A stretch of 64,000 nt of DNA from a phage. Below the pieces are notes generated by a model. That model made no database searches. It was not told the origin of the DNA and worked only from the letters and a program-made list of their open reading frames with translations. The stretch is taken from sequence record PZ496580.1; one strand, given 5' to 3'. Made by a program: the position numbers and the translations under genes. Position 1 is the first letter of the stretch. Each line of letters opens with the position of its first letter. Positions 1 through 64,000 of this stretch are shown here, one piece after another.

Positions 1-2126
1 ATACCCGCGCTATTACTCCTAAGAAATTAGAAGAACGTCGAGCGTCCGAGGATCTTGCTGGTATTGCTGAAATTGTTCAGGTTGGCGGTCGTGCTGCCGC
101 TCGACGTGGCGAAGCTGGTACAGGGATCTATAACATCAACGACCATGCTAAAATTGTTACGCCACAAAACATCAACGAAGTTAAGGCGACAGAAACTTCC
201 CGTGGTGTTGGCTATCTGGCAACTGACGCGGAAGTGCAAGGGGCTACAGAATCAACCCCGCAAGATGCTTTACTAATCACGACTCGCACGCTAACGAAAC
301 GTACTGCTACCGAATCGCGTACTGGTATCGCTGAAATTGCAACTCAGGAAGAAACAAACTTAGGTCAAAGTGATAACCATATCATCACGCCTAAAAAGCT
401 GCATACTCGCCGCGCAACGGAAACTTTACACGGTTTAGCAGAAATTGCAACTCAGCCGGAATTTGACGCAGGTCGTGACGATGCTCGCATTTCTACCCCA
501 TTGAAGATTAAAACCTTCTTTGAGAATGCACAGCGCTTGAAAGTAGATCCGACTCAGGGGCTTAACCTTACTGGTGATTTGTGGCAAGGTATCATGATCA
601 GCGGTCTGGATGCAACCGAAGACACAAAAGGTGTCGCTAAAGTTGCTACTACTCAGCTTACGGATGCTGGTCAAGATGATACTACAATCATTACTCCTAA
701 AAAGCTGCAAGGCAAAAAGGCAACCGAAGGTAAAGAAGGTATTATCCGAGTTGGTACTCAAGCCGAAACCGTGGCTGGTACACTGGCTAATGTAGCAATT
801 TCTCCGAAGAACTTCAAATATGTTGTTCAGACAGAGGATACATGGAAAGCAACCGAAGCGCGTCGTGGTTTCTTGAAAGTTGCTACTCAGGAAAACTGTT
901 TTGTTGGTGACAATCTGCAAGGTTCTACTCAAGAACTAGTAAACTACCCGCATGACGGAATTGCTGTTACCCCGAAAGGATTAAACTATGCACTTGCTAA
1001 TTTCTTACCTAAGATGGCAACCGCTCAGAATAGTTTGAAATTGGGTAACGTAGAGGCCGCTAAATGGGCGCGTAGAGACATTGACCAGACCATTGAGAGC
1101 AATTACACGTTTAATAAAAACGTTAACGTGAAGGGCGATTTAGAGTGCTTAAAATCAGGTTCCTTTGAAACTCTGTATGTGACTAAGAACTCTACTGATG
1201 ATCCGAGTAATGGTCATCTGGTGTTGGGTGAGCGTGGAGTTGACGGTCACACCGGAATTACTCTGCATGGCACAACAGAATCGGAAGGTATGGAAAACTC
1301 ATGGTCTATTATCGTTGGTGGTACTGGTACGGCGCAAGTAGTTGATGGTGATGCGATCGCTTTCGGTAAAATTAATGATGGTGGATTCGTCGAGCATTAC
1401 GCCTTTGCTATGGAACACAATGGCGACGCGGCAGCATATCGAGACTTTATTGCAGGTCGTAACCTGTATGCGAAACAAGGCGGTTTATACATTGTTGACC
1501 AGTCTAATCCGGCAATGACTCGTTCCCCGGATGGTATGCTGAATATCGGTCACGGTGGAAGTGTTAACATCAAGGCAGGTTATCAAACGTTAACTACAGA
1601 GATCGCCGGACAGAAATATCAGATCGTACACGCAGGAAACGCTGACGAAGTTCTTAACCGTCAGTTTGTTAAGAATGCTGGCGATACAATGGTCGGTAAG
1701 CTGATTATGGATAATGCGCCTATTGTTTCTGTTAAGCATGAAGCTAGCGCAGCAACCGCTCCGGCAATCGGTAACATCGGTTTCTGGAATATGCGCGTTA
1801 CTACCCAGAACATCAAAGAAACTTATCCAGAGAAGAAAAACGGTACTCTGATGCAATGGGGTACTGACGAGGACGGGCTTACCCAGCTTTGGTCCCCTGA
1901 TGGTACTCATAAACATTATATCCGTTCCGGTACTGGTGGTCAATGGACCGCATGGGGTGAAATTTACACCAAACAGAATAAGCCTACCGCTCAGGAAATC
2001 GGGGCAGTAGTTGCAGAAGGTGGTTTAATGAACTCTATGACGGTTCGTGATTGGATCAAAGTTGGTAATGTTAAAATCATCGCCAATAATCTGACTCGTA
2101 CCGTAGACTTTATCTGGGAAGACTAA
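1..2126 (+). CDS. 34: Long tail fiber proximal subunit gp34, C-terminal ~700 codons (5' end outside window)
   Basis: Frame open from nt 3 to stop at 2126. Repeated ITPKKL..TE..G.AEIATQ motifs and C-terminus ...VGNVKIIANNLTRTVDFIWED match remembered T4 gp34. Followed by 35-36-37. Confidence 0.85.
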   Translation, partial: TRAITPKKLEERRASEDLAGIAEIVQVGGRAAARRGEAGTGIYNINDHAKIVTPQNINEVKATETSRGVGYLATDAEVQGATESTPQDALLITTRTLTKRTATESRTGIAEIATQEETNLGQSDNHIITPKKLHTRRATETLHGLAEIATQPEFDAGRDDARISTPLKIKTFFENAQRLKVDPTQGLNLTGDLWQGIMISGLDATEDTKGVAKVATTQLTDAGQDDTTIITPKKLQGKKATEGKEGIIRVGTQAETVAGTLANVAISPKNFKYVVQTEDTWKATEARRGFLKVATQENCFVGDNLQGSTQELVNYPHDGIAVTPKGLNYALANFLPKMATAQNSLKLGNVEAAKWARRDIDQTIESNYTFNKNVNVKGDLECLKSGSFETLYVTKNSTDDPSNGHLVLGERGVDGHTGITLHGTTESEGMENSWSIIVGGTGTAQVVDGDAIAFGKINDGGFVEHYAFAMEHNGDAAAYRDFIAGRNLYAKQGGLYIVDQSNPAMTRSPDGMLNIGHGGSVNIKAGYQTLTTEIAGQKYQIVHAGNADEVLNRQFVKNAGDTMVGKLIMDNAPIVSVKHEASAATAPAIGNIGFWNMRVTTQNIKETYPEKKNGTLMQWGTDEDGLTQLWSPDGTHKHYIRSGTGGQWTAWGEIYTKQNKPTAQEIGAVVAEGGLMNSMTVRDWIKVGNVKIIANNLTRTVDFIWED

Positions 2127-2160: not shown

Positions 2161-3300
2161 ATGACACAAGAGATAGAATTACGCAATACTGGAATTAAGT
2201 TTGCGCATTTCGATGAGGACTCCGCGACATTTACCAGCATTTCAGAAAATAACTCTGTAATGTATAAACTTGAGGTTAGAGGATCTAATGCGGATTCTAC
2301 CAAACCAGCAAGGATTAGATTTAATGGAGTGGAGATCGTTGGCACTGGTTATGAAAATGGCCTAAATTTTAAAGTTCTTACTCCAACTGGACAATTACAC
2401 GAAGAAAAGGTATTCTATGGTCGAGGTGCTGTTTTGGCAATGCGTGATTATCTTTCTTTGCTGAAAGGTGATTATATCATTGCGATGGCAACGCATGGAG
2501 AATTGTTTGCAGATCCGGTAAGTGATGATGTATTTTCTAAGCTGGGATCGGTATCATTCCCGAATCACATTTTGCTACAGCAAATGCCTCGTGTATCATA
2601 TGCAGCAATTTATTCTACGAAAATGGGTAAAATTGTTTGTGAAGGTATGCAAGCGACCCACGGGGAAGGACAAGATTCATCTATACAAATTGAGAAGGTT
2701 TATGATACTATAGATGATCTTGCTATAACAGGAACACCACAACGATTTTTAGATTATCCGGTTGAATATGTTAGCGAAGATGCCGAACATTTCGAGCTAG
2801 TACAATGGCCTCATGATGAGATCAGCGCACCACTTGAATATTTTAACATAAAGGCAGGTGACAAACTATCAATATCTTTTGAATTGTTCCGTGATAGTGC
2901 CGCAGCCGCAGCCAACGTAACAGCGCGTTTCTATCACAACTACTTCACCGATGGACAATATAAAACTGGTGTTCGATACAATGCCAGCAAAAAAGATCAA
3001 TGGGAAAAGTTTGAAGCCGTCTATACCGTACCGGAAGGAGTTGATAGTGTAGTAACTGGTTGCGTTAGATATCCAACCAACTCCAATGAAGGTATTGTTA
3101 AAGTTAGAAACATACTAATAACGCCGATCAGTGGAGTCGTCAAAACTACTGGTCCTACTTCATTTGGTGTTAATGGTGTTAGAACAACTCATATTCAGGA
3201 TAACGGTGATTTTACTAACCCTGTAATGAGTCTTCTTAAACTACCCAGAGACAATAAACATATCACATCCAACAACTTTAAAGAGTTCGATGTTGATTAA
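2161..3300 (+). CDS. 35: Long tail fiber hinge connector gp35 (379 aa)
   Basis: Position between 34 and 36; size close to T4 gp35 (372 aa). Assignment mainly by synteny. Confidence 0.7.
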   Translation: MTQEIELRNTGIKFAHFDEDSATFTSISENNSVMYKLEVRGSNADSTKPARIRFNGVEIVGTGYENGLNFKVLTPTGQLHEEKVFYGRGAVLAMRDYLSLLKGDYIIAMATHGELFADPVSDDVFSKLGSVSFPNHILLQQMPRVSYAAIYSTKMGKIVCEGMQATHGEGQDSSIQIEKVYDTIDDLAITGTPQRFLDYPVEYVSEDAEHFELVQWPHDEISAPLEYFNIKAGDKLSISFELFRDSAAAAANVTARFYHNYFTDGQYKTGVRYNASKKDQWEKFEAVYTVPEGVDSVVTGCVRYPTNSNEGIVKVRNILITPISGVVKTTGPTSFGVNGVRTTHIQDNGDFTNPVMSLLKLPRDNKHITSNNFKEFDVD

Positions 3301-3311
3301 CATTTTTAACA

Positions 3312-3340
3312 AGCCGATCCATGTGGTCGGCTTTATTTTT
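3312..3340 (+). terminator. Rho-independent terminator after gene 35
   Basis: Hairpin AGCCGA-N9-TCGGCT followed by TTTATTTTTAT. Confidence 0.6.
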
Positions 3341-3462
3341 ATACAGTTGGTTAAATTATAACCAAAACGAAGAAAGATCTTTAGAATATAGAAAAGTTTG
3401 TTTCGGTTAAAAATTAGTCAGTGCCTACGGCACGTCGCGAAGCGATATTTTGTTAACATTCT

Positions 3463-3470
3463 ATAAATAC
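3463..3470 (+). promoter_or_regulatory. T4-type late promoter TATAAATA upstream of gene 36
   Basis: Exact TATAAATA 33 nt upstream of the gp36 ATG. Confidence 0.6.
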
Positions 3471-3502
3471 TCGGAACTATAACTAATTTTTGAGGTTACT
3501 TT

Positions 3503-4993
3503 ATGGCAGATTTGAAACATGGATCTACTGTAGGCGGATCTCCCATTTGGACGCAAGGAAACTTGACGATCCAGCCAGCGGGAGATCAGCTTTTCTACAA
3601 AGGTCATAAAATCTATACCGCTTTTGATAGACCTTCGGCTACCGATTTTGATGCTGTTAGTGCATCCGAAGGTGGCACATTTCAAAAGCAAGTTCATTTC
3701 GAGGAAGGTTTAAGCGTAGGTAGCGCATCGGCTGGAGAAACCAAAAAGAATGGTATCTTTAAAGGCCAGAGTGATGCTGCTAATTTTGACGGCGTAAGCT
3801 GGGGTTTGCATTCATGGAAGTCAATCGGCTTTGTTAATGCCCGTGATGGCGTTATCATGGCGTATATTGACACCACAACGGGCGAATTTAAGTCTAAAGG
3901 GACTATCGAAGGGACAACCATTAAAGACACAGGTCAACGCGTCTACAGCCCTGTTAATAAACCGACGAATAATGATTTGGATTTGGTTTCCCGTCGCGGT
4001 GATACTCTCACAGGAACATATAATTTAAACACTGTCACTGTTAAACTATCGGTTGATTCGAAATTAATTGCAAGGGAACGTGATTTAATTAATTTTGATG
4101 CGACTAAGATCTATTATGGTAACGTTCTTGATACGTTGGTCTTCCGAAGTAAAGATGAGCCTACCATTTTTGTTAATGGCAAAGAAGGTCGTTTTTATCA
4201 CACCAACAATAAACCAACTAAAGCCGATGTTGGACTAGGCAATGTCACCAATGATGCACAGGTTAAACGTGCTGGTGATATTATGGAAGGTAACTTGCAA
4301 GCGCCTAGAATGTTGGCGACAAACGATCCTGCTGGTCCTAATGAATTGGTTCGTTTGAGCTACTTTGAGAAAAAATCAATGGTAGCAAATCCAACCATCA
4401 TTGGAAACGTTGATTGGAACACTCTTATTAATCGCGGTATCTATCGTGTGGAAAATGCTGGGTCAGGTACTAACAAACCGTCTGATAGCTATTATAACGG
4501 CGTTTTGATGGTATATCGCCCAGAAGATGCGGTCGGTACTCGTCGAATTGTTCAGGTTTATTATCCTGAATCTATTGACCATCCGATGTGCTGGCGTTCT
4601 TGTTCTAATGAATCATGGACTGCATGGAACTATGTAGATCACCGTAAATTAGCCGATATTCGCTATGTTAACGTAACTGGCGATACCATGACAGGACAGT
4701 TAACTGTTCCGGCTGCAAATGGCGTTAAAACGGCTAGAGGTGCATATAATGGTGATAACTACTATGCTGGGTTAAATAGTGCTGATGGCACGGCTATGAT
4801 TCACCGTATCAGCGATATTAAAGCCACCGAAAAATTGGGTATTACGCACGATTCTAAAGCTGTTTTCATTAAAGCGCGTGGAAATACTCAAGACACAGAC
4901 CGCTATGAACTTTACCACGAAGGCCATAAACCGACACCCGCAGAGGTTGGCGCGGTTCCACTTAATGCGGTGATTGATTTTGGTACTTTCTAA
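3503..4993 (+). CDS. 36: Long tail fiber distal-half connector gp36, enlarged (496 aa vs 221 aa in T4)
   Basis: N-terminus MADLKHGSTVGGSPIWTQGN...PAGD matches remembered T4 gp36 N-terminus MADLKVGSTTGGSVIWHQGN. SD GAGG before ATG. Confidence 0.85.
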   Translation: MADLKHGSTVGGSPIWTQGNLTIQPAGDQLFYKGHKIYTAFDRPSATDFDAVSASEGGTFQKQVHFEEGLSVGSASAGETKKNGIFKGQSDAANFDGVSWGLHSWKSIGFVNARDGVIMAYIDTTTGEFKSKGTIEGTTIKDTGQRVYSPVNKPTNNDLDLVSRRGDTLTGTYNLNTVTVKLSVDSKLIARERDLINFDATKIYYGNVLDTLVFRSKDEPTIFVNGKEGRFYHTNNKPTKADVGLGNVTNDAQVKRAGDIMEGNLQAPRMLATNDPAGPNELVRLSYFEKKSMVANPTIIGNVDWNTLINRGIYRVENAGSGTNKPSDSYYNGVLMVYRPEDAVGTRRIVQVYYPESIDHPMCWRSCSNESWTAWNYVDHRKLADIRYVNVTGDTMTGQLTVPAANGVKTARGAYNGDNYYAGLNSADGTAMIHRISDIKATEKLGITHDSKAVFIKARGNTQDTDRYELYHEGHKPTPAEVGAVPLNAVIDFGTF

Positions 4994-4997
4994 TTTT

Positions 4998-5022
4998 AGC
5001 GGGGAGATAATCCCCGCTTTTC
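4998..5022 (+). terminator. Rho-independent terminator after gene 36
   Basis: AGCGGGGA-GATAA-TCCCCGCT hairpin followed by TTTT. Confidence 0.6.
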
Positions 5023-5063
5023 TAAATAATATTATTCTAATAACCGTTTAAGGATTTTATAAA

Positions 5064-7976
5064 ATGGCAGATTTAAGCAGAATCCAATTTAAACGCACTA
5101 GCACTAAAGGTCGTCGACCTGATGCTGGTACGATGAATCCGGGGGAATTGGCAATCAACCTTGCGGATCAATATCTTCTTACTAAAAATGATTCCGGTGC
5201 TATTATCAATTTAAGTTGTCCTCCGGTTTATGACCGCGATGTTACAATGGCTGGTAAAGTTAAAGGTAATAATTATATCTTAAGTAAAACCGCTAACTAT
5301 TTGGAAGACCAGACAGCGAGAGACCTTAACTACTTTGGTGCTTTCCGTACCAATGGTCTTGATGGCTTTCTCGAACTCACGCTAAACGTTCCTCATTCTT
5401 CTGGTGTTCAGCATGGTCGAGGATTTACTTTCCAGTATGGACACACTGGATCACGAGTAGAAACCTATGGCTATAATAGAGAAGGTCAAAAAGCATTTAG
5501 CTATAAAATGTATCACGAAGGTGATAAACCAACTCCTGGAGAATTGAACGTTTACAGCAAACAAGAAGTTGACCGTATGTTTGTTAAAAACGTTAAACTT
5601 GCTACAGTTCCTGTTGATACCGTTGAAGGCTATTTTAAATTAGCAACTGCAATGATTCCACAAAACGGTCGTAGCGTATTTTTCCGTATTCATGGCGGCA
5701 ACGGATATAATGTTACTGCATACGATCAAGTTGATATTGTAGAAATTGTTATTCGCAGTGGAAATAATCGCCCTAAAAGTGTTAACGTTATTGCATATCG
5801 CCGAAATACAAACAAATCATTTGATGTTTTGGCTGTTAATACTTCTGGTGATAACTATGATATCTATGTGAAATATCAGCGTTACACTGATAACGTTATT
5901 GTTGAATTTGGTAAAAGTGTTGATGTTAATCTGGTAGTTCATGACGTTCCAGACTTTGTTGCTGACCGTCCTGCTGGCGATAATGTTATTGGCGGTCGCG
6001 CGGTAACTCTTTTCAACACCGAAAACAAACGCGGTGTATTGAGTTTTGACGATAACACACAAAATAGTTATGATATTGTTCACTTGAGTAATGATAAAGG
6101 TACTGGACGAAAATATATTCGTAAATTCCGTAGCAACTATAACGAAATGATCTGGCATGAGACTGTTCAAGGTAATACATATCGATTGGCAACCGGAACG
6201 ACTGATGCATCGGAAGTTTTTAGAATTACTAGTCGCACCATGTTTACTGGTAAAGGTGTATTTGATGCCGGACAAAACGTTCTTAGATTAGAGCGTCCTA
6301 GTAACCAATCAAACTATATTGAATGGCAAGATCGCCGAAATGGTGCTGATGCTCGTCAAGGTTGGATCGGTTTTGGTAGTGCTGAAACAAATAACTTCCA
6401 ATGGTATAGCGATCACGGAAAAAACTCATTCCAGTTGGATGCTAATGGTCAATGCTCTATTACTACTGGTGCGACCAAAATTGTATATACCAACGGACAA
6501 TATTATTCCGCTAACTCTGATGCATATCGTATGATCTATGGCAATTACGGTGCATTCTGGCGCAATGACGGGACTAAAGTTTATCTTCTTTCCACCAAAG
6601 AAAATGACCGTTTTGGTGGATGGAACGGCAACCGACCATTCATTTACGATTTGACGACTGGTAAAGTTACTTTAGGTGGTGACGGTAACGAAGGTGCATT
6701 AGTTCTTGAAAGAGATAGCCGTGCGGCTAGATTTGCTGGCGACATTTACGTTGGCAAAGGGATGTTAACATTTGATGCCGGACGATTAAATTCTCGTGAT
6801 TACTTCCGGTTTAACCATTGGGGCGATAGCAATAACGCGCGTGATAACATCCTACAGCTTGACGATAGCAAAGGTGCACACTTCACCACTGAACGTACTT
6901 TAGCAACTGGTGCGATTAAAACTAAATTCTTCGGTGATTTGGAATCTGCTGGTCAGATTAAATGGGGTAAAGGGACCGCCACATCTACGTTTACTATACG
7001 TGTTTGGGGTGCTGATGCTCGTAAACAAATATTTGAATGCGGCGATGAAAGCGGGTGGCATTGGTATACACAGCGTGCTGGTGGACCGGGAACTCCCGCA
7101 ATTGATTTTAGTATTAACGGTACTGTAAGGCCGCAAACTATGGATTGTGGCGGTAATATCACCCTTCGTGGTGCTGATATTGAATTTAAACGAAGCGGTA
7201 ACAAGCATTTATGGTTTAGAGATCCAAACGGATTAGAATTGGGTTTGATTTATTGTGATGATGCTGGTGTTATTCGTGTCCGTGGTGAGAAGTCGACCGA
7301 AGTATGGAAATTCTCGGCAAAACAGATTCATTTAGAAACGGGTACTGCCGGAAATGGTGTAGGCTTGCTTCGTGGTGCTGTAGGTGGTGGCGCATGGACT
7401 CAATGGAGAGATCGTGGTACTGGTTTGCAGGTTGACTGTCAGCAATCAGAAAACTCAGCACACAACATATGGCGAGCGACTCATCAAGGCAAATACCATC
7501 TTGCAGCAATGGGTGTTCATGCATCCGGTGGTAGTGTTGCTAATACCGTTGTTAGATTACATGTCCATGACTCAAACTATGATTTCACTGCGGTTGGTGA
7601 CTTCACCGCAGGTCGTAACGGTTCGTTTAACGATGTGTACATTCGTTCTGATGCTCGCCTTAAAATCAACAAGGAAGAGTATAAGGAGAATGCCACCGAT
7701 AAAGTTAATCGCTTGACGGTATATACCTATGACAAGGTTAAATCTTTAACCGACCGTACTGTCATTGCTCATGAAGTTGGTATTATTGCTCAGGATCTTG
7801 AGAAAGAATTGCCAGAAGCAGTAACAACCTCGAAGATCGGCGACGGTGATACACCAGAAGAGATCTTAACAATTTCTAACTCTGCTGTCAACGCTCTTTT
7901 AATTAAGGCGTTTCAGGAAATGAGCGAAGAATTGAAAGCCGTTAAAGCTGAACTAGCGGAACTTAAAAAGAATTAA
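5064..7976 (+). CDS. 37: Long tail fiber distal subunit gp37 (970 aa) with C-terminal intramolecular chaperone domain
   Basis: N-terminus MADLSRIQFKRTSTKGRRPDAGTMNPGELAINL resembles remembered T4 gp37 [28 protein letters not shown]. C-terminus has S-D-A-R-L-K motif and helical tail typical of S74-type auto-chaperones. Confidence 0.9.
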   Translation: MADLSRIQFKRTSTKGRRPDAGTMNPGELAINLADQYLLTKNDSGAIINLSCPPVYDRDVTMAGKVKGNNYILSKTANYLEDQTARDLNYFGAFRTNGLDGFLELTLNVPHSSGVQHGRGFTFQYGHTGSRVETYGYNREGQKAFSYKMYHEGDKPTPGELNVYSKQEVDRMFVKNVKLATVPVDTVEGYFKLATAMIPQNGRSVFFRIHGGNGYNVTAYDQVDIVEIVIRSGNNRPKSVNVIAYRRNTNKSFDVLAVNTSGDNYDIYVKYQRYTDNVIVEFGKSVDVNLVVHDVPDFVADRPAGDNVIGGRAVTLFNTENKRGVLSFDDNTQNSYDIVHLSNDKGTGRKYIRKFRSNYNEMIWHETVQGNTYRLATGTTDASEVFRITSRTMFTGKGVFDAGQNVLRLERPSNQSNYIEWQDRRNGADARQGWIGFGSAETNNFQWYSDHGKNSFQLDANGQCSITTGATKIVYTNGQYYSANSDAYRMIYGNYGAFWRNDGTKVYLLSTKENDRFGGWNGNRPFIYDLTTGKVTLGGDGNEGALVLERDSRAARFAGDIYVGKGMLTFDAGRLNSRDYFRFNHWGDSNNARDNILQLDDSKGAHFTTERTLATGAIKTKFFGDLESAGQIKWGKGTATSTFTIRVWGADARKQIFECGDESGWHWYTQRAGGPGTPAIDFSINGTVRPQTMDCGGNITLRGADIEFKRSGNKHLWFRDPNGLELGLIYCDDAGVIRVRGEKSTEVWKFSAKQIHLETGTAGNGVGLLRGAVGGGAWTQWRDRGTGLQVDCQQSENSAHNIWRATHQGKYHLAAMGVHASGGSVANTVVRLHVHDSNYDFTAVGDFTAGRNGSFNDVYIRSDARLKINKEEYKENATDKVNRLTVYTYDKVKSLTDRTVIAHEVGIIAQDLEKELPEAVTTSKIGDGDTPEEILTISNSAVNALLIKAFQEMSEELKAVKAELAELKKN
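7647..7976 (+). other. Intramolecular chaperone (peptidase S74-like) domain of gp37; predicted autocleavage at Ser of SDARLK
   Basis: ...YIRSDARLKINKEEY...GIIAQDLEKELPEAV...ALLIKAFQEMSEELKAVKAELAELKKN, the pattern of endosialidase/T5 L-fiber C-terminal chaperone domains. Confidence 0.7.
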
Positions 7977-8018
7977 GGAAAACTCCCAGGGAAGGGAAAC
8001 TACTAAGGAGAAACGGCT

Positions 8019-8258
8019 ATGGTCTATAATATCGTCATTGGTGCTTTGTCTAGTTTCGGAATGAAACTATTGTCAAAGTTAATTAGTGAAAAGATGCTCA
8101 CTAAAATTTTCTTCTATTGCGCTCGTCGTCTTGCGGCTTATACCAATACGCCAATTGATGATCGTTTTGTGGAAGAACTTTATAAGGAGTTTAATAAAGA
8201 TCAGTCAGAAGATAGTAACGAGCAAGATAAACCTAGTGATAGTCAACTACCTAAATAA
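8019..8258 (+). CDS. Hypothetical 79-aa protein between 37 and t (hydrophobic N-terminus, acidic C-terminus)
   Basis: Strong SD AAGGAG 7 nt before ATG; occupies the slot where T4 has gene 38. Confidence 0.6.
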   Translation: MVYNIVIGALSSFGMKLLSKLISEKMLTKIFFYCARRLAAYTNTPIDDRFVEELYKEFNKDQSEDSNEQDKPSDSQLPK

Positions 8259-8291
8259 GAGTACACTGTCATAGTTATCTTAGGGCATTAT

Positions 8292-8948
8292 ATGCAAGTT
8301 TCTGAAAAAGAGAAAGACTTTGCTATCTCAAATGTCCTGCGCGCTATTTTCACAACTAAAAGCACGGAGTTGCTCGTACTTCGTGTTTTTGCTGCCGTCG
8401 TGTTGTCCATATTAGCATTTGTCGTTTATAGTAAAAACGAGTTATTTGCGCTTTATAAAGAGACTCGTTATGAGACTTATGCTCACGTTCTCCAGGTAGA
8501 GAAAGACCGCAATTTTGATAATGCAGCACAGGAGCAGTTACAGATAGTTCATGTGTCGGCTGATGCCGATTTTTCTGCTGTTTTTAGTTTTCGTCCGAAA
8601 AACCTAAACTATTTTGTTGATTTGGTGGCATATGAAGGAAAGCTACCGCATACGATCGATGAAAAGAATTTAGGCGGATTCCCTATCAATAAAACGAGTG
8701 AAGAATATCGTAGGCATCTTTTAGGTAAATCCTATTTTACTGATAAAGATTTCCAGTATATTCCATCGAGGGAGAAAAAATTAGAGAATATCGATATAGG
8801 ATTCATGTATTCTTGTCCTATATTCAATCTCGATAATGTCTATTCTGGTAGTATCGCCATTGCATGGAAGAATAAACCGGATATTGACATTGAGAATTTA
8901 GATACTCTTTGCAATCAATCTGCCAGAATCCTCGGAAGGATTAGATAA
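8292..8948 (+). CDS. t: Holin t (218 aa)
   Basis: Same length as T4 holin t; EQLQIVHVSADADFSAVFSFRPKNLNYFVDLVAYEGKLP and C-terminal ARILGR match remembered T4 T. Confidence 0.9.
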   Translation: MQVSEKEKDFAISNVLRAIFTTKSTELLVLRVFAAVVLSILAFVVYSKNELFALYKETRYETYAHVLQVEKDRNFDNAAQEQLQIVHVSADADFSAVFSFRPKNLNYFVDLVAYEGKLPHTIDEKNLGGFPINKTSEEYRRHLLGKSYFTDKDFQYIPSREKKLENIDIGFMYSCPIFNLDNVYSGSIAIAWKNKPDIDIENLDTLCNQSARILGRIR

Positions 8949-8952
8949 CTTA

Positions 8953-8988
8953 AAGGGGAAGCCTTTCGGCCTCCCCTTCTTTTTTATT
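8953..8988. terminator. Convergent terminator separating plus-strand late module from minus-strand early array
   Basis: AAAGGGGAAGCC-TTTC-GGCCTCCCCTT hairpin followed by CTTTTTTATT. Confidence 0.6.
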
Positions 8989-9232
8989 GGTGCATAGAAG
9001 CCCCTGAATCACATTTTGACGCTGTATGATGAAAACAGGTAGCGTACCAGTCATCGGCTTGTTTGTCTTCGTCAGAAAACGCGTAATTTCGTTGTATACC
9101 GTTTTCTACTTTGACCAGTGCAATAGCTGTTTCTGGAAGATCAATCAATCGAACAAAATCACCATCTTCCCACTCTACACGAGCAATATCATAGCCCATC
9201 TCAAAATAAACAATCGCTTGTTCTAATTTCAT
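8984..9232 (-). CDS. Hypothetical protein (82 aa)
   Basis: Last ORF of the minus-strand array; start overlaps the stop of the upstream ORF. Confidence 0.5.
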   Translation of the reverse strand: MKLEQAIVYFEMGYDIARVEWEDGDFVRLIDLPETAIALVKVENGIQRNYAFSDEDKQADDWYATCFHHTASKCDSGASMHQ

Positions 9233-61968: not shown

Positions 61969-62213
61969 TTTACATTGTCTCCATAGATCTTTCCATCAAT
62001 ACCAATTTCACCAGCACGAACATCTAGGATAAGATGCGGTAGGTGTATGCAGTTTTCCCACCCTACGCGCTTCATTTCTGAAACAGTGACGTAAGCCCAT
62101 CCGTTCGCTGTAATAAAGTCTACTTCAACCTTGAGAGGAAAGCAAGACTTTTCTATGTTTTCAAATCCGACAATGTGTTTTGTCGTTGAATATGGAATAT
62201 ATCCGGTGATCAT
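61965..62213 (-). CDS. Hypothetical protein (82 aa)
   Basis: ORF, ATGA overlap with downstream ORF. Confidence 0.5.
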   Translation of the reverse strand: MITGYIPYSTTKHIVGFENIEKSCFPLKVEVDFITANGWAYVTVSEMKRVGWENCIHLPHLILDVRAGEIGIDGKIYGDNVK

Positions 62214-62671
62214 TTTGTGATCTCCTTATACTCAACACACCATAAACGGGTCGCCCATGATAAACGCTCATAACGCTGGCAGAAATCAGACCATAGATAT
62301 TGTGTACCGTCTTGCATAGTTGAAATATGCGTTTTCTCTCCTACTTTCACGAATGAAGTATTCGATTTTGTGATCTCGACCGGAGTATATCCGAAAGCTG
62401 GTTCCAAGTCAACATCTGAACTAAATGCTAATTTAACAGAATTTGTTTTTCTGACCGCTGTCCGGTTTCCTTCTGGGTATAGCACAGCAGGTTTAGCGCC
62501 TAAGCGGATAAACTCAGTGTTTTTAATGAACAGAATATCATGATAACCGTCATATTCCGACACTTCCATAGTAACAGGAAAATCGACATGTTCTAAACCT
62601 GGTAGATCTCGCATATCATGAAATGTAGCCATCAACTTTTTCATCTTGTATTCCTCACTCTTCTGTTTCAT
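62210..62671 (-). CDS. Hypothetical protein (153 aa)
   Basis: ORF in minus-strand array. Confidence 0.5.
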   Translation of the reverse strand: MKQKSEEYKMKKLMATFHDMRDLPGLEHVDFPVTMEVSEYDGYHDILFIKNTEFIRLGAKPAVLYPEGNRTAVRKTNSVKLAFSSDVDLEPAFGYTPVEITKSNTSFVKVGEKTHISTMQDGTQYLWSDFCQRYERLSWATRLWCVEYKEITK

Positions 62672-62852
62672 TTCTTTTATATGGTACTATAACAGGATTA
62701 ATACAGCAAGCACCAATTACGTTATGAGCACCACAATTTAAGCATTTATAATCATGGAACTTATTAAGGAATCGACCAAACTCATAGCCGACTAACGCCG
62801 CGTGTACTTGAGTCTCGATCTCATCCATATCAGCCAATGTTTTAACCTTCAT
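62655..62852 (-). CDS. Small zinc-finger protein (65 aa from ATG at 62852; track start 62891)
   Basis: ATG at 62852 preceded by GAGGATTATATT; CLNCGAHNVIGACC motif. Confidence 0.45.
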   Translation of the reverse strand: MKVKTLADMDEIETQVHAALVGYEFGRFLNKFHDYKCLNCGAHNVIGACCINPVIVPYKRNETEE

Positions 62853-62862
62853 AATATAATCC

Positions 62863-63153
62863 TCAAATGGTAGTTTTGCGAAGATGGTCATTACATGCTT
62901 TTAATGCATCAGTCGCGGTGTCATAGCGAGTATTATCATAGCACCAGTAACCATCTGTCAACTGATAAATCAATCCGTCCCTTTTAGCTTCGATGAAAGA
63001 TAACTCTTTGAAAGTTTCTACTTTCTTTGCTGATACTCCACGGTCACGGCGCTTATAGAGTTTAGCTAAAATGCGTTCAGCTTGTTCCTCTTTATCACCA
63101 GACAGATCCCAAATAATGTTGCGGATATGTTTGATTAATTGTTCAGTGGTCAT
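62863..63153 (-). CDS. Hypothetical protein (96 aa)
   Basis: ORF with conserved UTR/SD AAGGAGAATCAAAG before ATG. Confidence 0.5.
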   Translation of the reverse strand: MTTEQLIKHIRNIIWDLSGDKEEQAERILAKLYKRRDRGVSAKKVETFKELSFIEAKRDGLIYQLTDGYWCYDNTRYDTATDALKACNDHLRKTTI

Positions 63154-63182
63154 CTTTGATTCTCCTTAGTTGGTATGTGTGC

Positions 63183-63210
63183 ATTATAGCATTGTGATTA
63201 TCTTTGTCAA
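63183..63210 (-). promoter_or_regulatory. sigma70 consensus promoter (TTGACA-N16-TATAAT)
   Basis: Plus tgtcaa at 63205-63210 and attata at 63183-63188. Confidence 0.6.
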
Positions 63211-63215
63211 CACCC

Positions 63216-63247
63216 AAAAACAAAAAGGCTACCCCGAAGGATAGCCC
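63216..63247 (-). terminator. Rho-independent terminator after the gp38-like gene
   Basis: Minus GGGCTATCC-TTCG-GGGTAGCC hairpin followed by TTTTTGTTTTT. Confidence 0.7.
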
Positions 63248-63253
63248 ATAAAA

Positions 63254-64000
63254 TTACACGCGAGCACCGTAGATCGTGCCTACTTTATCCCAGCGAGGGG
63301 CATTGCCAGTAACAGCCTTACCAGCTGCGCCACCCGAGTGAACAGTTCCTCCAGTACCACCTTGAATATATGAAGATTTGCCAGCAGACCCCAAATCTCC
63401 ACCATTTCCTCCATAGTGAACCCCAGAAACAGTGCCTTTACCTGGGGCAGAAATTGTACCAGCAGATGCTGCCGCTGCGCCGCCTCCTGCCTTACCAGCA
63501 GCACCAAATGGACGGCCTCCGCCGCCTCCAAATATCATATCCATTTGAGGGAAAGGATGGTATCTAGCACCAGCACCGCCACCACCGCCACCACCAATAA
63601 TACCATTATTGTTTATTCTTAAACGAGTTCCAATTCCGTTATTTATTGCATTTCCTCCTGCTCCACCAGCAGAGTTACTTCCGCCATTTCCTCCCCGACC
63701 TAATACATGAACACCAGAGTTAATGATTAGTGTCACATATTCATTTGTTAGTGAGCTAGGGAAATCAAGACAAGGAACGCCAGTAGATTGGGAAACAATA
63801 TTACCTGTGATAGTAATTACTACCGGAGTAGATCCTTGTGCTTTCATCCAGTTAATAAGAGTGTCTTTATTGTAAGAGTTACTAGCGCCAATGCTATAAT
63901 GAATCTCTTTAGAACGTCCGACCATCGCTGACATATACGCCGGACGACCTAAGCGTACAGCTTGCATTGCGGCGCTCATCCACCGTTGACCAGTCTCAGA
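63254..64000 (-). CDS. gp38-like glycine-rich receptor-binding adhesin, C-terminal ~248 codons (5' end outside window)
   Basis: Frame open to window edge; ...SETGQRWMSAAMQAVRLG...GRSKEIHYSIGA... resembles the conserved N-domain of T2-type gp38 as remembered; multiple glycine-rich tracts (GRGGNGGSNSAGGAGG, GGGGGGGAG, FGGGGGRPFGAAGKAGGG). Confidence 0.55.
   Translation of the reverse strand, partial: SETGQRWMSAAMQAVRLGRPAYMSAMVGRSKEIHYSIGASNSYNKDTLINWMKAQGSTPVVITITGNIVSQSTGVPCLDFPSSLTNEYVTLIINSGVHVLGRGGNGGSNSAGGAGGNAINNGIGTRLRINNNGIIGGGGGGGAGARYHPFPQMDMIFGGGGGRPFGAAGKAGGGAAAASAGTISAPGKGTVSGVHYGGNGGDLGSAGKSSYIQGGTGGTVHSGGAAGKAVTGNAPRWDKVGTIYGARV

Follow-up and report, generated by a model that had tools for sequence, protein, structure and literature searches.

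In T4-type phages, the needle tip of the distal tail fiber protein gp37 is itself the receptor binder, with gp38 and gp57A acting as chaperones, and this T4 gp38 is unrelated to the gp38 of T2 and T6. For the gp37 proteins of T2, T6, and S16, cleavage followed by capping with gp38 has been described, and autocleavage has been reported for T2, S16, and T5. The gp37 of S16 sheds a 113-residue intramolecular chaperone, which exposes a docking surface for gp38 (PMC7917993). RB49 gp37 has been described as carrying a self-cleaving chaperone, after which gp38 attaches and caps the fiber (Efimov et al. 2022, PMC9569957), and a passage in Trojet et al. 2011 (PMC3157838), citing Desplats 2002, reports that RB49 gene 38 is displaced and that a small open reading frame (ORF) sits in its usual place. 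Here we analyze gene 37 (positions 5064 to 7976, plus strand) and the fiber genes related to it in a 64,000-nucleotide (nt) stretch of phage DNA (sequence record PZ496580.1), called the window below. The fiber is of the T2/T6 type with a displaced gene 38 (g38), an arrangement already known for RB49. The whole explanation, namely that this is the T2/T6-type fiber of an RB49-like phage whose self-cleaving gp37 is capped by gp38 made from the displaced gene, has in our estimation a probability of roughly 90%.

Gene 37 encodes a protein of 970 amino acids (aa) whose terminal part contains the sequence NDVYIR-SDARLKINKEE (GRNGSFNDVYIR before SDARLKINKEE). Residues 1 to 861 (5064 to 7646, plus strand) would constitute the mature subunit of the distal half-fiber, with a predicted end at Arg861; this part matches phrog_1699, "long tail fiber distal subunit" (E = 3.6e-183). 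Residues 862 to 970 with the stop codon (7647 to 7976, plus strand) form the C-terminal chaperone, in which residues 862 to 921 match the Peptidase_S74 profile PF13884 over its full length (profile positions 1-58/58; E = 1.4e-11, 45 bits, against a curated cutoff of 22 bits). The codon for Ser862 starts at 7647, and the interval from there to 7976 is exactly the domain and its stop codon. The original prediction, made from the DNA letters, had placed an S74-type chaperone with an SDARLK motif at the gp37 C terminus and had named a comparison with Peptidase_S74 profiles as a check on it; the complete profile match above the cutoff, together with the fold matches given next, confirms that domain.

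The AlphaFold2 model of gp37 residues 712 to 970 (mean pLDDT 81.8) consists of a small alpha/beta unit followed by a 31-residue helix at the C terminus (fragment residues 228 to 258). The earlier description of the domain as helical is therefore correct for that single terminal helix but not for the fold itself, which is modeled as mixed alpha/beta. Foldseek searches with the model retrieved MyRF ICA (7DC3; E = 7e-5, target TM score 0.65 to 0.70), GA-1 (3GUD; probability 1.0), and endosialidase NF (3GW6; probability 0.9). The S74 chaperones of K1F endosialidase, T5 pb1, the GA-1 neck appendage, and MyRF ICA resemble that of gp37 in profile, in the Ser-Lys(+5) arrangement, and in fold, and they too are C-terminal and follow a trimeric fiber. 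They differ in the fate of the mature protein, which in these systems is itself a receptor binder or an enzyme, whereas a separate adhesin should cap the tip encoded in the window, as in T2, T6, and S16. When full-length gp37 was compared with PDB sequences by phmmer, only similarities of the shaft to T4 gp34 and the Mu fiber were returned; the S16 gp37 construct 6F45_A aligned over the chaperone (E = 1.4e-4) only when the C-terminal 259 residues were searched alone.

The residues expected to carry out cleavage are strongly conserved. R861, S862, D863, L866, and K867 do not vary among 40 aligned sequences (the window fragment and 39 homologs from protein databases). Within the motif S862-D-A-R-L-K867, the lysine follows the serine by five residues, the same spacing as in T5 pb1, which is cleaved at Thr1263|Ser1264 and has Lys1269 as the counterpart lysine; this pattern identifies Ser862 and Lys867 as the predicted catalytic pair. 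We place the predicted cut at Arg861|Ser862 because the serine is the first released residue in both T5 pb1 and S16, and a cut at this bond would therefore yield a mature gp37 of 861 aa and a chaperone of 109 aa. The original prediction had put cleavage after the SDARLK serine, which is at odds with the behavior of S74 domains in T5 pb1 and S16, where the cut falls before the serine. The S16 site reads DLNVS^SDRRIKK, and the aligned fPS-phage site reads DVYIR^SDGRLKI (PMC7917993).

The same domain is found in T6. Its gp37 (994 aa) matches PF13884 at residues 882 to 940 (E = 6.6e-10), the chaperone domains of the two phages are 64% identical, and their cleavage contexts are nearly superimposable (NGSFNDVYIR|SDARLKINKEE in the window, NGSFSDVYIR|SDSRLKINKEE in T6). 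Upstream similarity is extensive as well, with residues 451 to 964 of the window gp37 aligning with T6 gp37 at 41% identity. T4 gp37, on the other hand, has no PF13884 match and carries Collar (PF07484) and Phage_fiber (PF03335) domains at its C terminus instead, neither of which was found in the window gp37 in a Pfam scan. What the window has in common with T4 is the overall 34-35-36-37...t locus and the homologous N termini of gp36 (37% identity over residues 1 to 171) and gp37 (46% over residues 1 to 69), whereas the T4 mode of receptor binding by the gp37 tip sets it apart; a tblastn search of the 64-kb window found no homolog of the T4 gp38 chaperone (best E = 1.2). With T2, T6, and S16 the window shares the S74 chaperone, the cleavage motif, and a homologous gp38, which would have a region for attachment at its N terminus and a glycine-rich domain for receptor binding. 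T2 and T6 differ from it in having g38 directly downstream of g37, which is a matter of gene order and not of mechanism, and T6 differs further in the length of gp36 (216 aa, against 496 aa in the window) and in its gp37 tip, whose sequence ahead of the last ~12 residues bears no relation to that of the window tip. Seen across these phages, the S74 chaperone is the rule in T2/T6-type fibers, and T4, which lacks it, is the exception.

The closest relatives of the window are the RB49-like phages. A megablast comparison of positions 3400 to 9000 with GenBank phages gave 86 records, with 88 to 94% identity over the 5.6 kb; RB49, Phi1, JSE, W115, and Brandy are among the matches listed, and their annotated gene order is that of the window. 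On the strength of this fiber-locus identity and the identical gene order, we assign the window to the genus Krischvirus (family Straboviridae), as DNA of an RB49-like, or "pseudo-T-even," coliphage. RB49, Phi1, JSE, W115, and Brandy49 have the order 34-35-36(496 aa)-37-79-aa ORF-t, with g38 ~55 kb away on the other strand, and differ from the window by sequence variation only. The gp37 chaperone is 96 to 98% identical to those of RB49 and W115. All three features singled out in the original prediction (the gp37 domain, the interval between genes 37 and t, and the length of gp36) are present where it had located them; they are not products of chance and are conserved in RB49, W115, and FL15, the last with the order 37-38-79-aa ORF-t.

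Gene 38 itself lies within the window, ~55 kb from gene 37, on the opposite strand and among small early-type ORFs (63254 to 64000, minus strand, continuing beyond the window). A glycine scan of window ORFs of at least 120 aa singled out 63254 to 63979 on the minus strand (23.7% Gly), and the product is a T2/T6-type tail fiber tip adhesin, with a full-length match to PF05268 GP38 (E = 1.6e-70) and a match to S16 gp38 (6F45_D; E = 2.5e-41). It is 50 to 54% identical to T6 gp38, 97.6% identical to residues 14 to 261 of W115 gp38 (248 aa), and 100% identical to Brandy49 gp38 over the 241 aa compared. A single tblastn match indicates that no second gp38-like sequence is present in the window. The frame is open to base 64000 and intact over the 248 codons within the window, and the first 13 codons therefore lie outside it; the W115 ortholog, of 261 aa, has the complete N terminus MAISSGWVGSSAVSETGQRW. 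Match coordinates place g37 and g38 ~53 to 55 kb apart also in Brandy, W115, Sf20, Delraymugoa, MIZ6, FL37, SSG23, and ECD7.

Host-range mutants selected in RB49 carry E230K and Y231S in gp38, and the receptors reported for RB49-like phages are OmpA and certain O antigens (PMC9569957). The claim that no gene 38 follows gene 37 thus holds for the immediate neighborhood but fails as a statement about the adhesin, which is encoded from 63254 onward on the minus strand. More generally, an RB49-like phage with no g38 beside g37 must not be taken to lack the adhesin; such phages are popular candidates for therapy, and the displaced gene has to be located if their host range is to be predicted.

Taken with the published work on S16 and RB49, these results suggest the following course of assembly. 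The gp37 protein would be made as a 970-aa precursor, and its residues 862 to 970 (109 aa) would, as an S74 chaperone, template trimerization of the beta-structured fiber tip. Once the trimer had folded, Ser862/Lys867 would cut Arg861|Ser862, and the chaperone trimer would depart. The gp37 tip exposed in this way would be capped by gp38 from the distant gene, probably as one monomer that docks by its N-terminal domain, by analogy with S16, and the glycine-rich C-terminal domain of gp38 would then bind the host receptor. The domain identities, the conserved catalytic residues, the fold, the homology to T6 and S16, the presence and uniqueness of g38, and the synteny (with RB49, W115, and Brandy) were computed here; for the cleavage, the docking and stoichiometry of gp38, and the use of the late promoter at 3462, we draw on homologs and the literature.

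Several points weigh against this account. The ~60 gp37 residues before the conserved last ~12 are wholly different between RB49-type and T6-type tips, a divergence likewise pointed out for other phages (PMC7917993), and because the two kinds of tip differ in this way, docking of gp38 on the window tip is an assumption taken from S16; the gp38 N termini of RB49-type and T6-type phages are nevertheless alike despite the divergence of the tips. Thirteen codons at the start of g38, among them that of the first conserved Trp, fall beyond the end of the window, and without them the Gp38_N profile PF21721 matches the window protein at profile positions 21 to 40 only (E = 0.014). Upstream of the displaced g38, as judged from the W115 locus, there is no exact copy of the T4-type late-promoter motif TATAAATA and no one-mismatch site within 60 nt. 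Finally, that gp37 is cleaved and gp38 incorporated in this particular phage is something we infer from its homologs.

One competing explanation, which we consider improbable, assigns the role of gp38 to the small ORF found in its place. This 79-aa ORF (8019 to 8258, plus strand; phrog_402, of unknown function, E = 5.5e-20) is a homolog of RB49ORF251w/dc5 and, as the original prediction had noted, is all that the window holds between gene 37 and the holin gene t, with no gp38 in the slot. It could then be a new small fiber chaperone or adhesin, a reading favored by its position and by homologs (31 to 52% identity) that directly follow a tail fiber gene in Felixounavirus phages. Comparison of this interval in relatives, which had been proposed as a check, went the other way: FL15 keeps g38 between gene 37 and the ORF, which there lies between g38 and t. 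We rejected the ORF as a substitute for gp38 because the two coexist side by side in that genome. In addition, the fiber protein upstream of the Felixounavirus homolog lacks an S74 domain and belongs to the T4 gp37_C type, homologs in Vibrio phages come after a GH108 endolysin, and the ORF has no similarity to gp38 and belongs to no Pfam or NCBIfam family (an NCBIfam scan of gp36, gp37, and gp38 likewise returned no families).

The ORF is 95 to 100% identical across Krischvirus, and members of the family share a moderately hydrophobic N terminus and a T-x-T-P-I-D-D-x-F motif. Its position next to holin t would suit a function in lysis or at the membrane at least as well as one in the fiber, and the family as a whole, in Krischvirus, Felixounavirus, and Vibrio phages, could represent an uncharacterized lysis- or fiber-associated small protein. 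Homologs of the ORF lie at L007:2492-2686 and L006:2504-2713. The ORF that follows the Felixounavirus homolog begins with a hydrophobic segment, contains a coiled coil, and is overlapped by an out-of-frame LLGC motif; we considered it as a spanin and dropped the idea as too weakly evidenced.

A second alternative, which we judge very improbable, is a third mode of assembly in which gp37 needs only its intramolecular chaperone to fold and the receptor is bound by the mature tip itself, without gp38. The original prediction had pointed in this direction by contrasting the fiber with both the T4 and T2 types. That no g38 follows gene 37 locally would suit such a mode, and S74-bearing fibers are able to bind a receptor directly after cleavage, as T5 pb1 does, with the endosialidase tailspikes as a further model. 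Against it stand the intact gp38 adhesin gene in the window, the location of the RB49 host-range mutations in gp38, the use of gp38 by T6, whose gp37 has the same chaperone, and the retention of one g38 at either site in both Krischvirus genomes checked at both loci. A third mode is not supported because T2/T6 gp37 carries the chaperone and the window holds g38, and no new question on fiber assembly is raised. We find it hardly credible that the distant g38 is a nonfunctional relic and that the fiber works without gp38: its setting among small early-type ORFs on the opposite strand, with no exact late-promoter motif upstream in the orthologous locus, would agree with this, but the frame is intact over all 248 window codons and matches the GP38 profile in full, the identities to Brandy49 and W115 gp38 are as high as given above, and selected host-range mutations in RB49 hit this very gene.

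The T2/T6-type fiber with a displaced g38 has a variant layout within the genus. In W115, g38 is at the distant site and not beside g37, and the window is alike as far as it reaches; in FL15, with g38 beside g37, the distant cassette is absent. Each of the two Krischvirus genomes examined at both loci (FL15 and W115) has exactly one g38, and FL15 is related to W115 and the window by a clean insertion/deletion at both sites (window 7939 to 7976 and 63154 to 64000). At the distant site, W115 has a 917-nt segment (L002:3679-4595) made up of a stem-loop, g38, a second stem-loop, and TTGACA-N16-TATAAT, in place of which FL15 has 37 nt (L009:6443-6479) comprising a promoter with a stem-loop in its spacer. 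At the fiber locus, FL15 has an 889-nt segment (L008:5838-6726) that is without counterpart in the window and contains a T6-like g37 end, a stem-loop, TATAAATT, and g38. Downstream of FL15 g38, AAAAAGAATTAAGG corresponds to the last codons (KKN and stop) of an RB49-type g37 and may be a recombination scar, and AAAAAGAATTAA at the same place is possibly a remnant of the 3' end of an RB49-type g37. Because AAAAAGAATTAAGG matches those codons, one can imagine that FL15 acquired its layout when a T6-like module of g37 end and g38 was imported, an idea that is suggestive only.

A 2025 paper places g38 near the holin gene in FL04, FL15, and FL20 and not in FL37 and FL38 (PMC12032242), and alternative placements within one genus are a tidy case of modular shuffling that has thus already been noted in print. 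Whether the two sites mark g38 as a mobile cassette, through which the adhesin could be swapped without gp37, is more doubtful, and we offer this reading tentatively; if it were true, g38 in the RB49 layout might be expressed from early or middle promoters rather than late ones.

The elements around the displaced gene can be described from sequence motifs. Just downstream of gene 38 in the window (approximately 63188 to 63249, minus strand) are a stem-loop, GGGCTATCC-TTCG-GGGTAGCC, with a T-run and a promoter-like site, TTGACA-N16-TATAAT; both belong to the cassette that FL15 lacks, and both are also present in W115 (promoter match 12/12, nine-pair hairpin). By such motifs, the g38 cassette of RB49, W115, and the window is bounded by putative stem-loops and a sigma-70-type promoter and lies in the hyperplastic early region. 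Upstream of W115 g38 (L002:4542-4600), in a stretch orthologous to the region just beyond 64000, is a GC-rich stem-loop, GCCCCTTAAATGGGGC, with a T-run. The displaced g38 is on the "early" strand, between this upstream stem-loop and the downstream stem-loop with its perfect TTGACA-N16-TATAAT (within window positions 63154 to 63253). The flanking elements are reminiscent of PeSL cassettes, which have been described for RB49 and phi1; the paper on PeSL cassettes by Arbiol et al. 2010 makes no mention of g38.

One further record touches on both gp38 and gp37. In P0022, a database protein of 303 aa, the N-terminal ~155 residues of a gp38 adhesin are fused to a gp37 tip with its S74 chaperone; the protein comes from one contig only and is either a natural recombinant or a chimera of assembly or annotation.

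The remaining fiber genes agree with the Krischvirus assignment. Gene 34, for the proximal half-fiber subunit, is represented by its C-terminal part (1 to 2126, plus strand) and runs off the start of the window; its frame is open from base 3, it is syntenic with RB49 gene 34, and it matches phrog_972, "tail fiber protein proximal subunit," at profile positions 622 to 1246 (E = 2e-184). Gene 35, for the hinge or proximal connector (2161 to 3300, plus strand; 379 aa; phrog_1154, E = 7e-126), has the same size in RB49, W115, and FL15. Beyond the 79-aa ORF is the holin gene t (8292 to 8948, plus strand; PF11031 Phage_holin_T, E = 4.9e-61; phrog_860, E = 3.2e-88). The fiber locus is only ~91 to 94% identical in DNA sequence to the nearest records, and on this basis the phage is a distinct isolate. 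Its gp37 and that of RB49 share 75% identity overall and differ in a mosaic pattern along the shaft. Brandy49 matches the g38 region (62000 to 64000) at 98.7% identity, the fiber locus reaches at most ~94% with any record, and the Brandy match to the fiber locus (3400 to 9000) covers only 87% of its length. Because the g38 region and the fiber locus differ in identity to their nearest relatives, the window is a mosaic relative to the sequenced Krischvirus isolates.

Gene 36, for the distal connector (3503 to 4993, plus strand), encodes 496 aa and is matched by phrog_16472 over its entire length (1-496/496). The observation that it is twice the T4 size is accurate (221 aa in T4). BLASTP aligns its residues 1 to 171 with T4 gp36 residues 1 to 184 (37% identity, E = 2e-29) and its residues 251 to 294 with T4 residues 172 to 215, and the remainder consists of an ~80-aa insertion and a ~200-aa C-terminal extension. 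The motif GD(T/I)(L/M)(T/E)G occurs three times in the protein, and no PDB sequence matched it at E<=0.1. The gp36 proteins of RB49 and FL15, both also of 496 aa, are 95 to 96% identical to it, and the long form is conserved in the three Krischvirus genomes compared. By sequence comparison, then, the 496-aa gp36 is a conserved Krischvirus feature that combines T4-like gp36 sequence with extra fiber modules, and it is a case of modular lengthening, not evidence of a different assembly pathway. The gp37 protein contains a Gp34_trimer domain (PF21446; residues 427 to 528, positions 6342 to 6647; E = 2.3e-27) that aligns with T4 gp34 residues 1018 to 1107 and 965 to 1030 and is therefore a module common to the proximal and distal half-fiber proteins.

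Signals that may govern transcription of the locus are found on either side of gene 36. A terminator-like hairpin after gene 35 (3311 to 3333, plus strand), a match to consensus only, has a nine-pair stem followed by a T-run. An exact copy of TATAAATA (3462 to 3469, plus strand) precedes the gene 36 ATG by 33 nt, and it is probably from this motif that genes 36 and 37, the 79-aa ORF, and t are transcribed together, as a single late unit. The motif is the one exact copy in the 64-kb window, against 5.6 expected from shuffles, and variants with one mismatch are depleted as well (70 against 126 expected). Such scarcity of TATAAATA would be expected if spurious late promoters were selected against in the block from 9 to 64 kb, where most genes are on the minus strand. 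In the gap between genes 36 and 37 (4998 to 5028), a GC-rich stem-loop, AGCGGGGAGATAATCCCCGCT, is followed by TCTAAATA, a late-promoter-like motif with one mismatch, and the two may form an internal terminator/promoter pair before gene 37.

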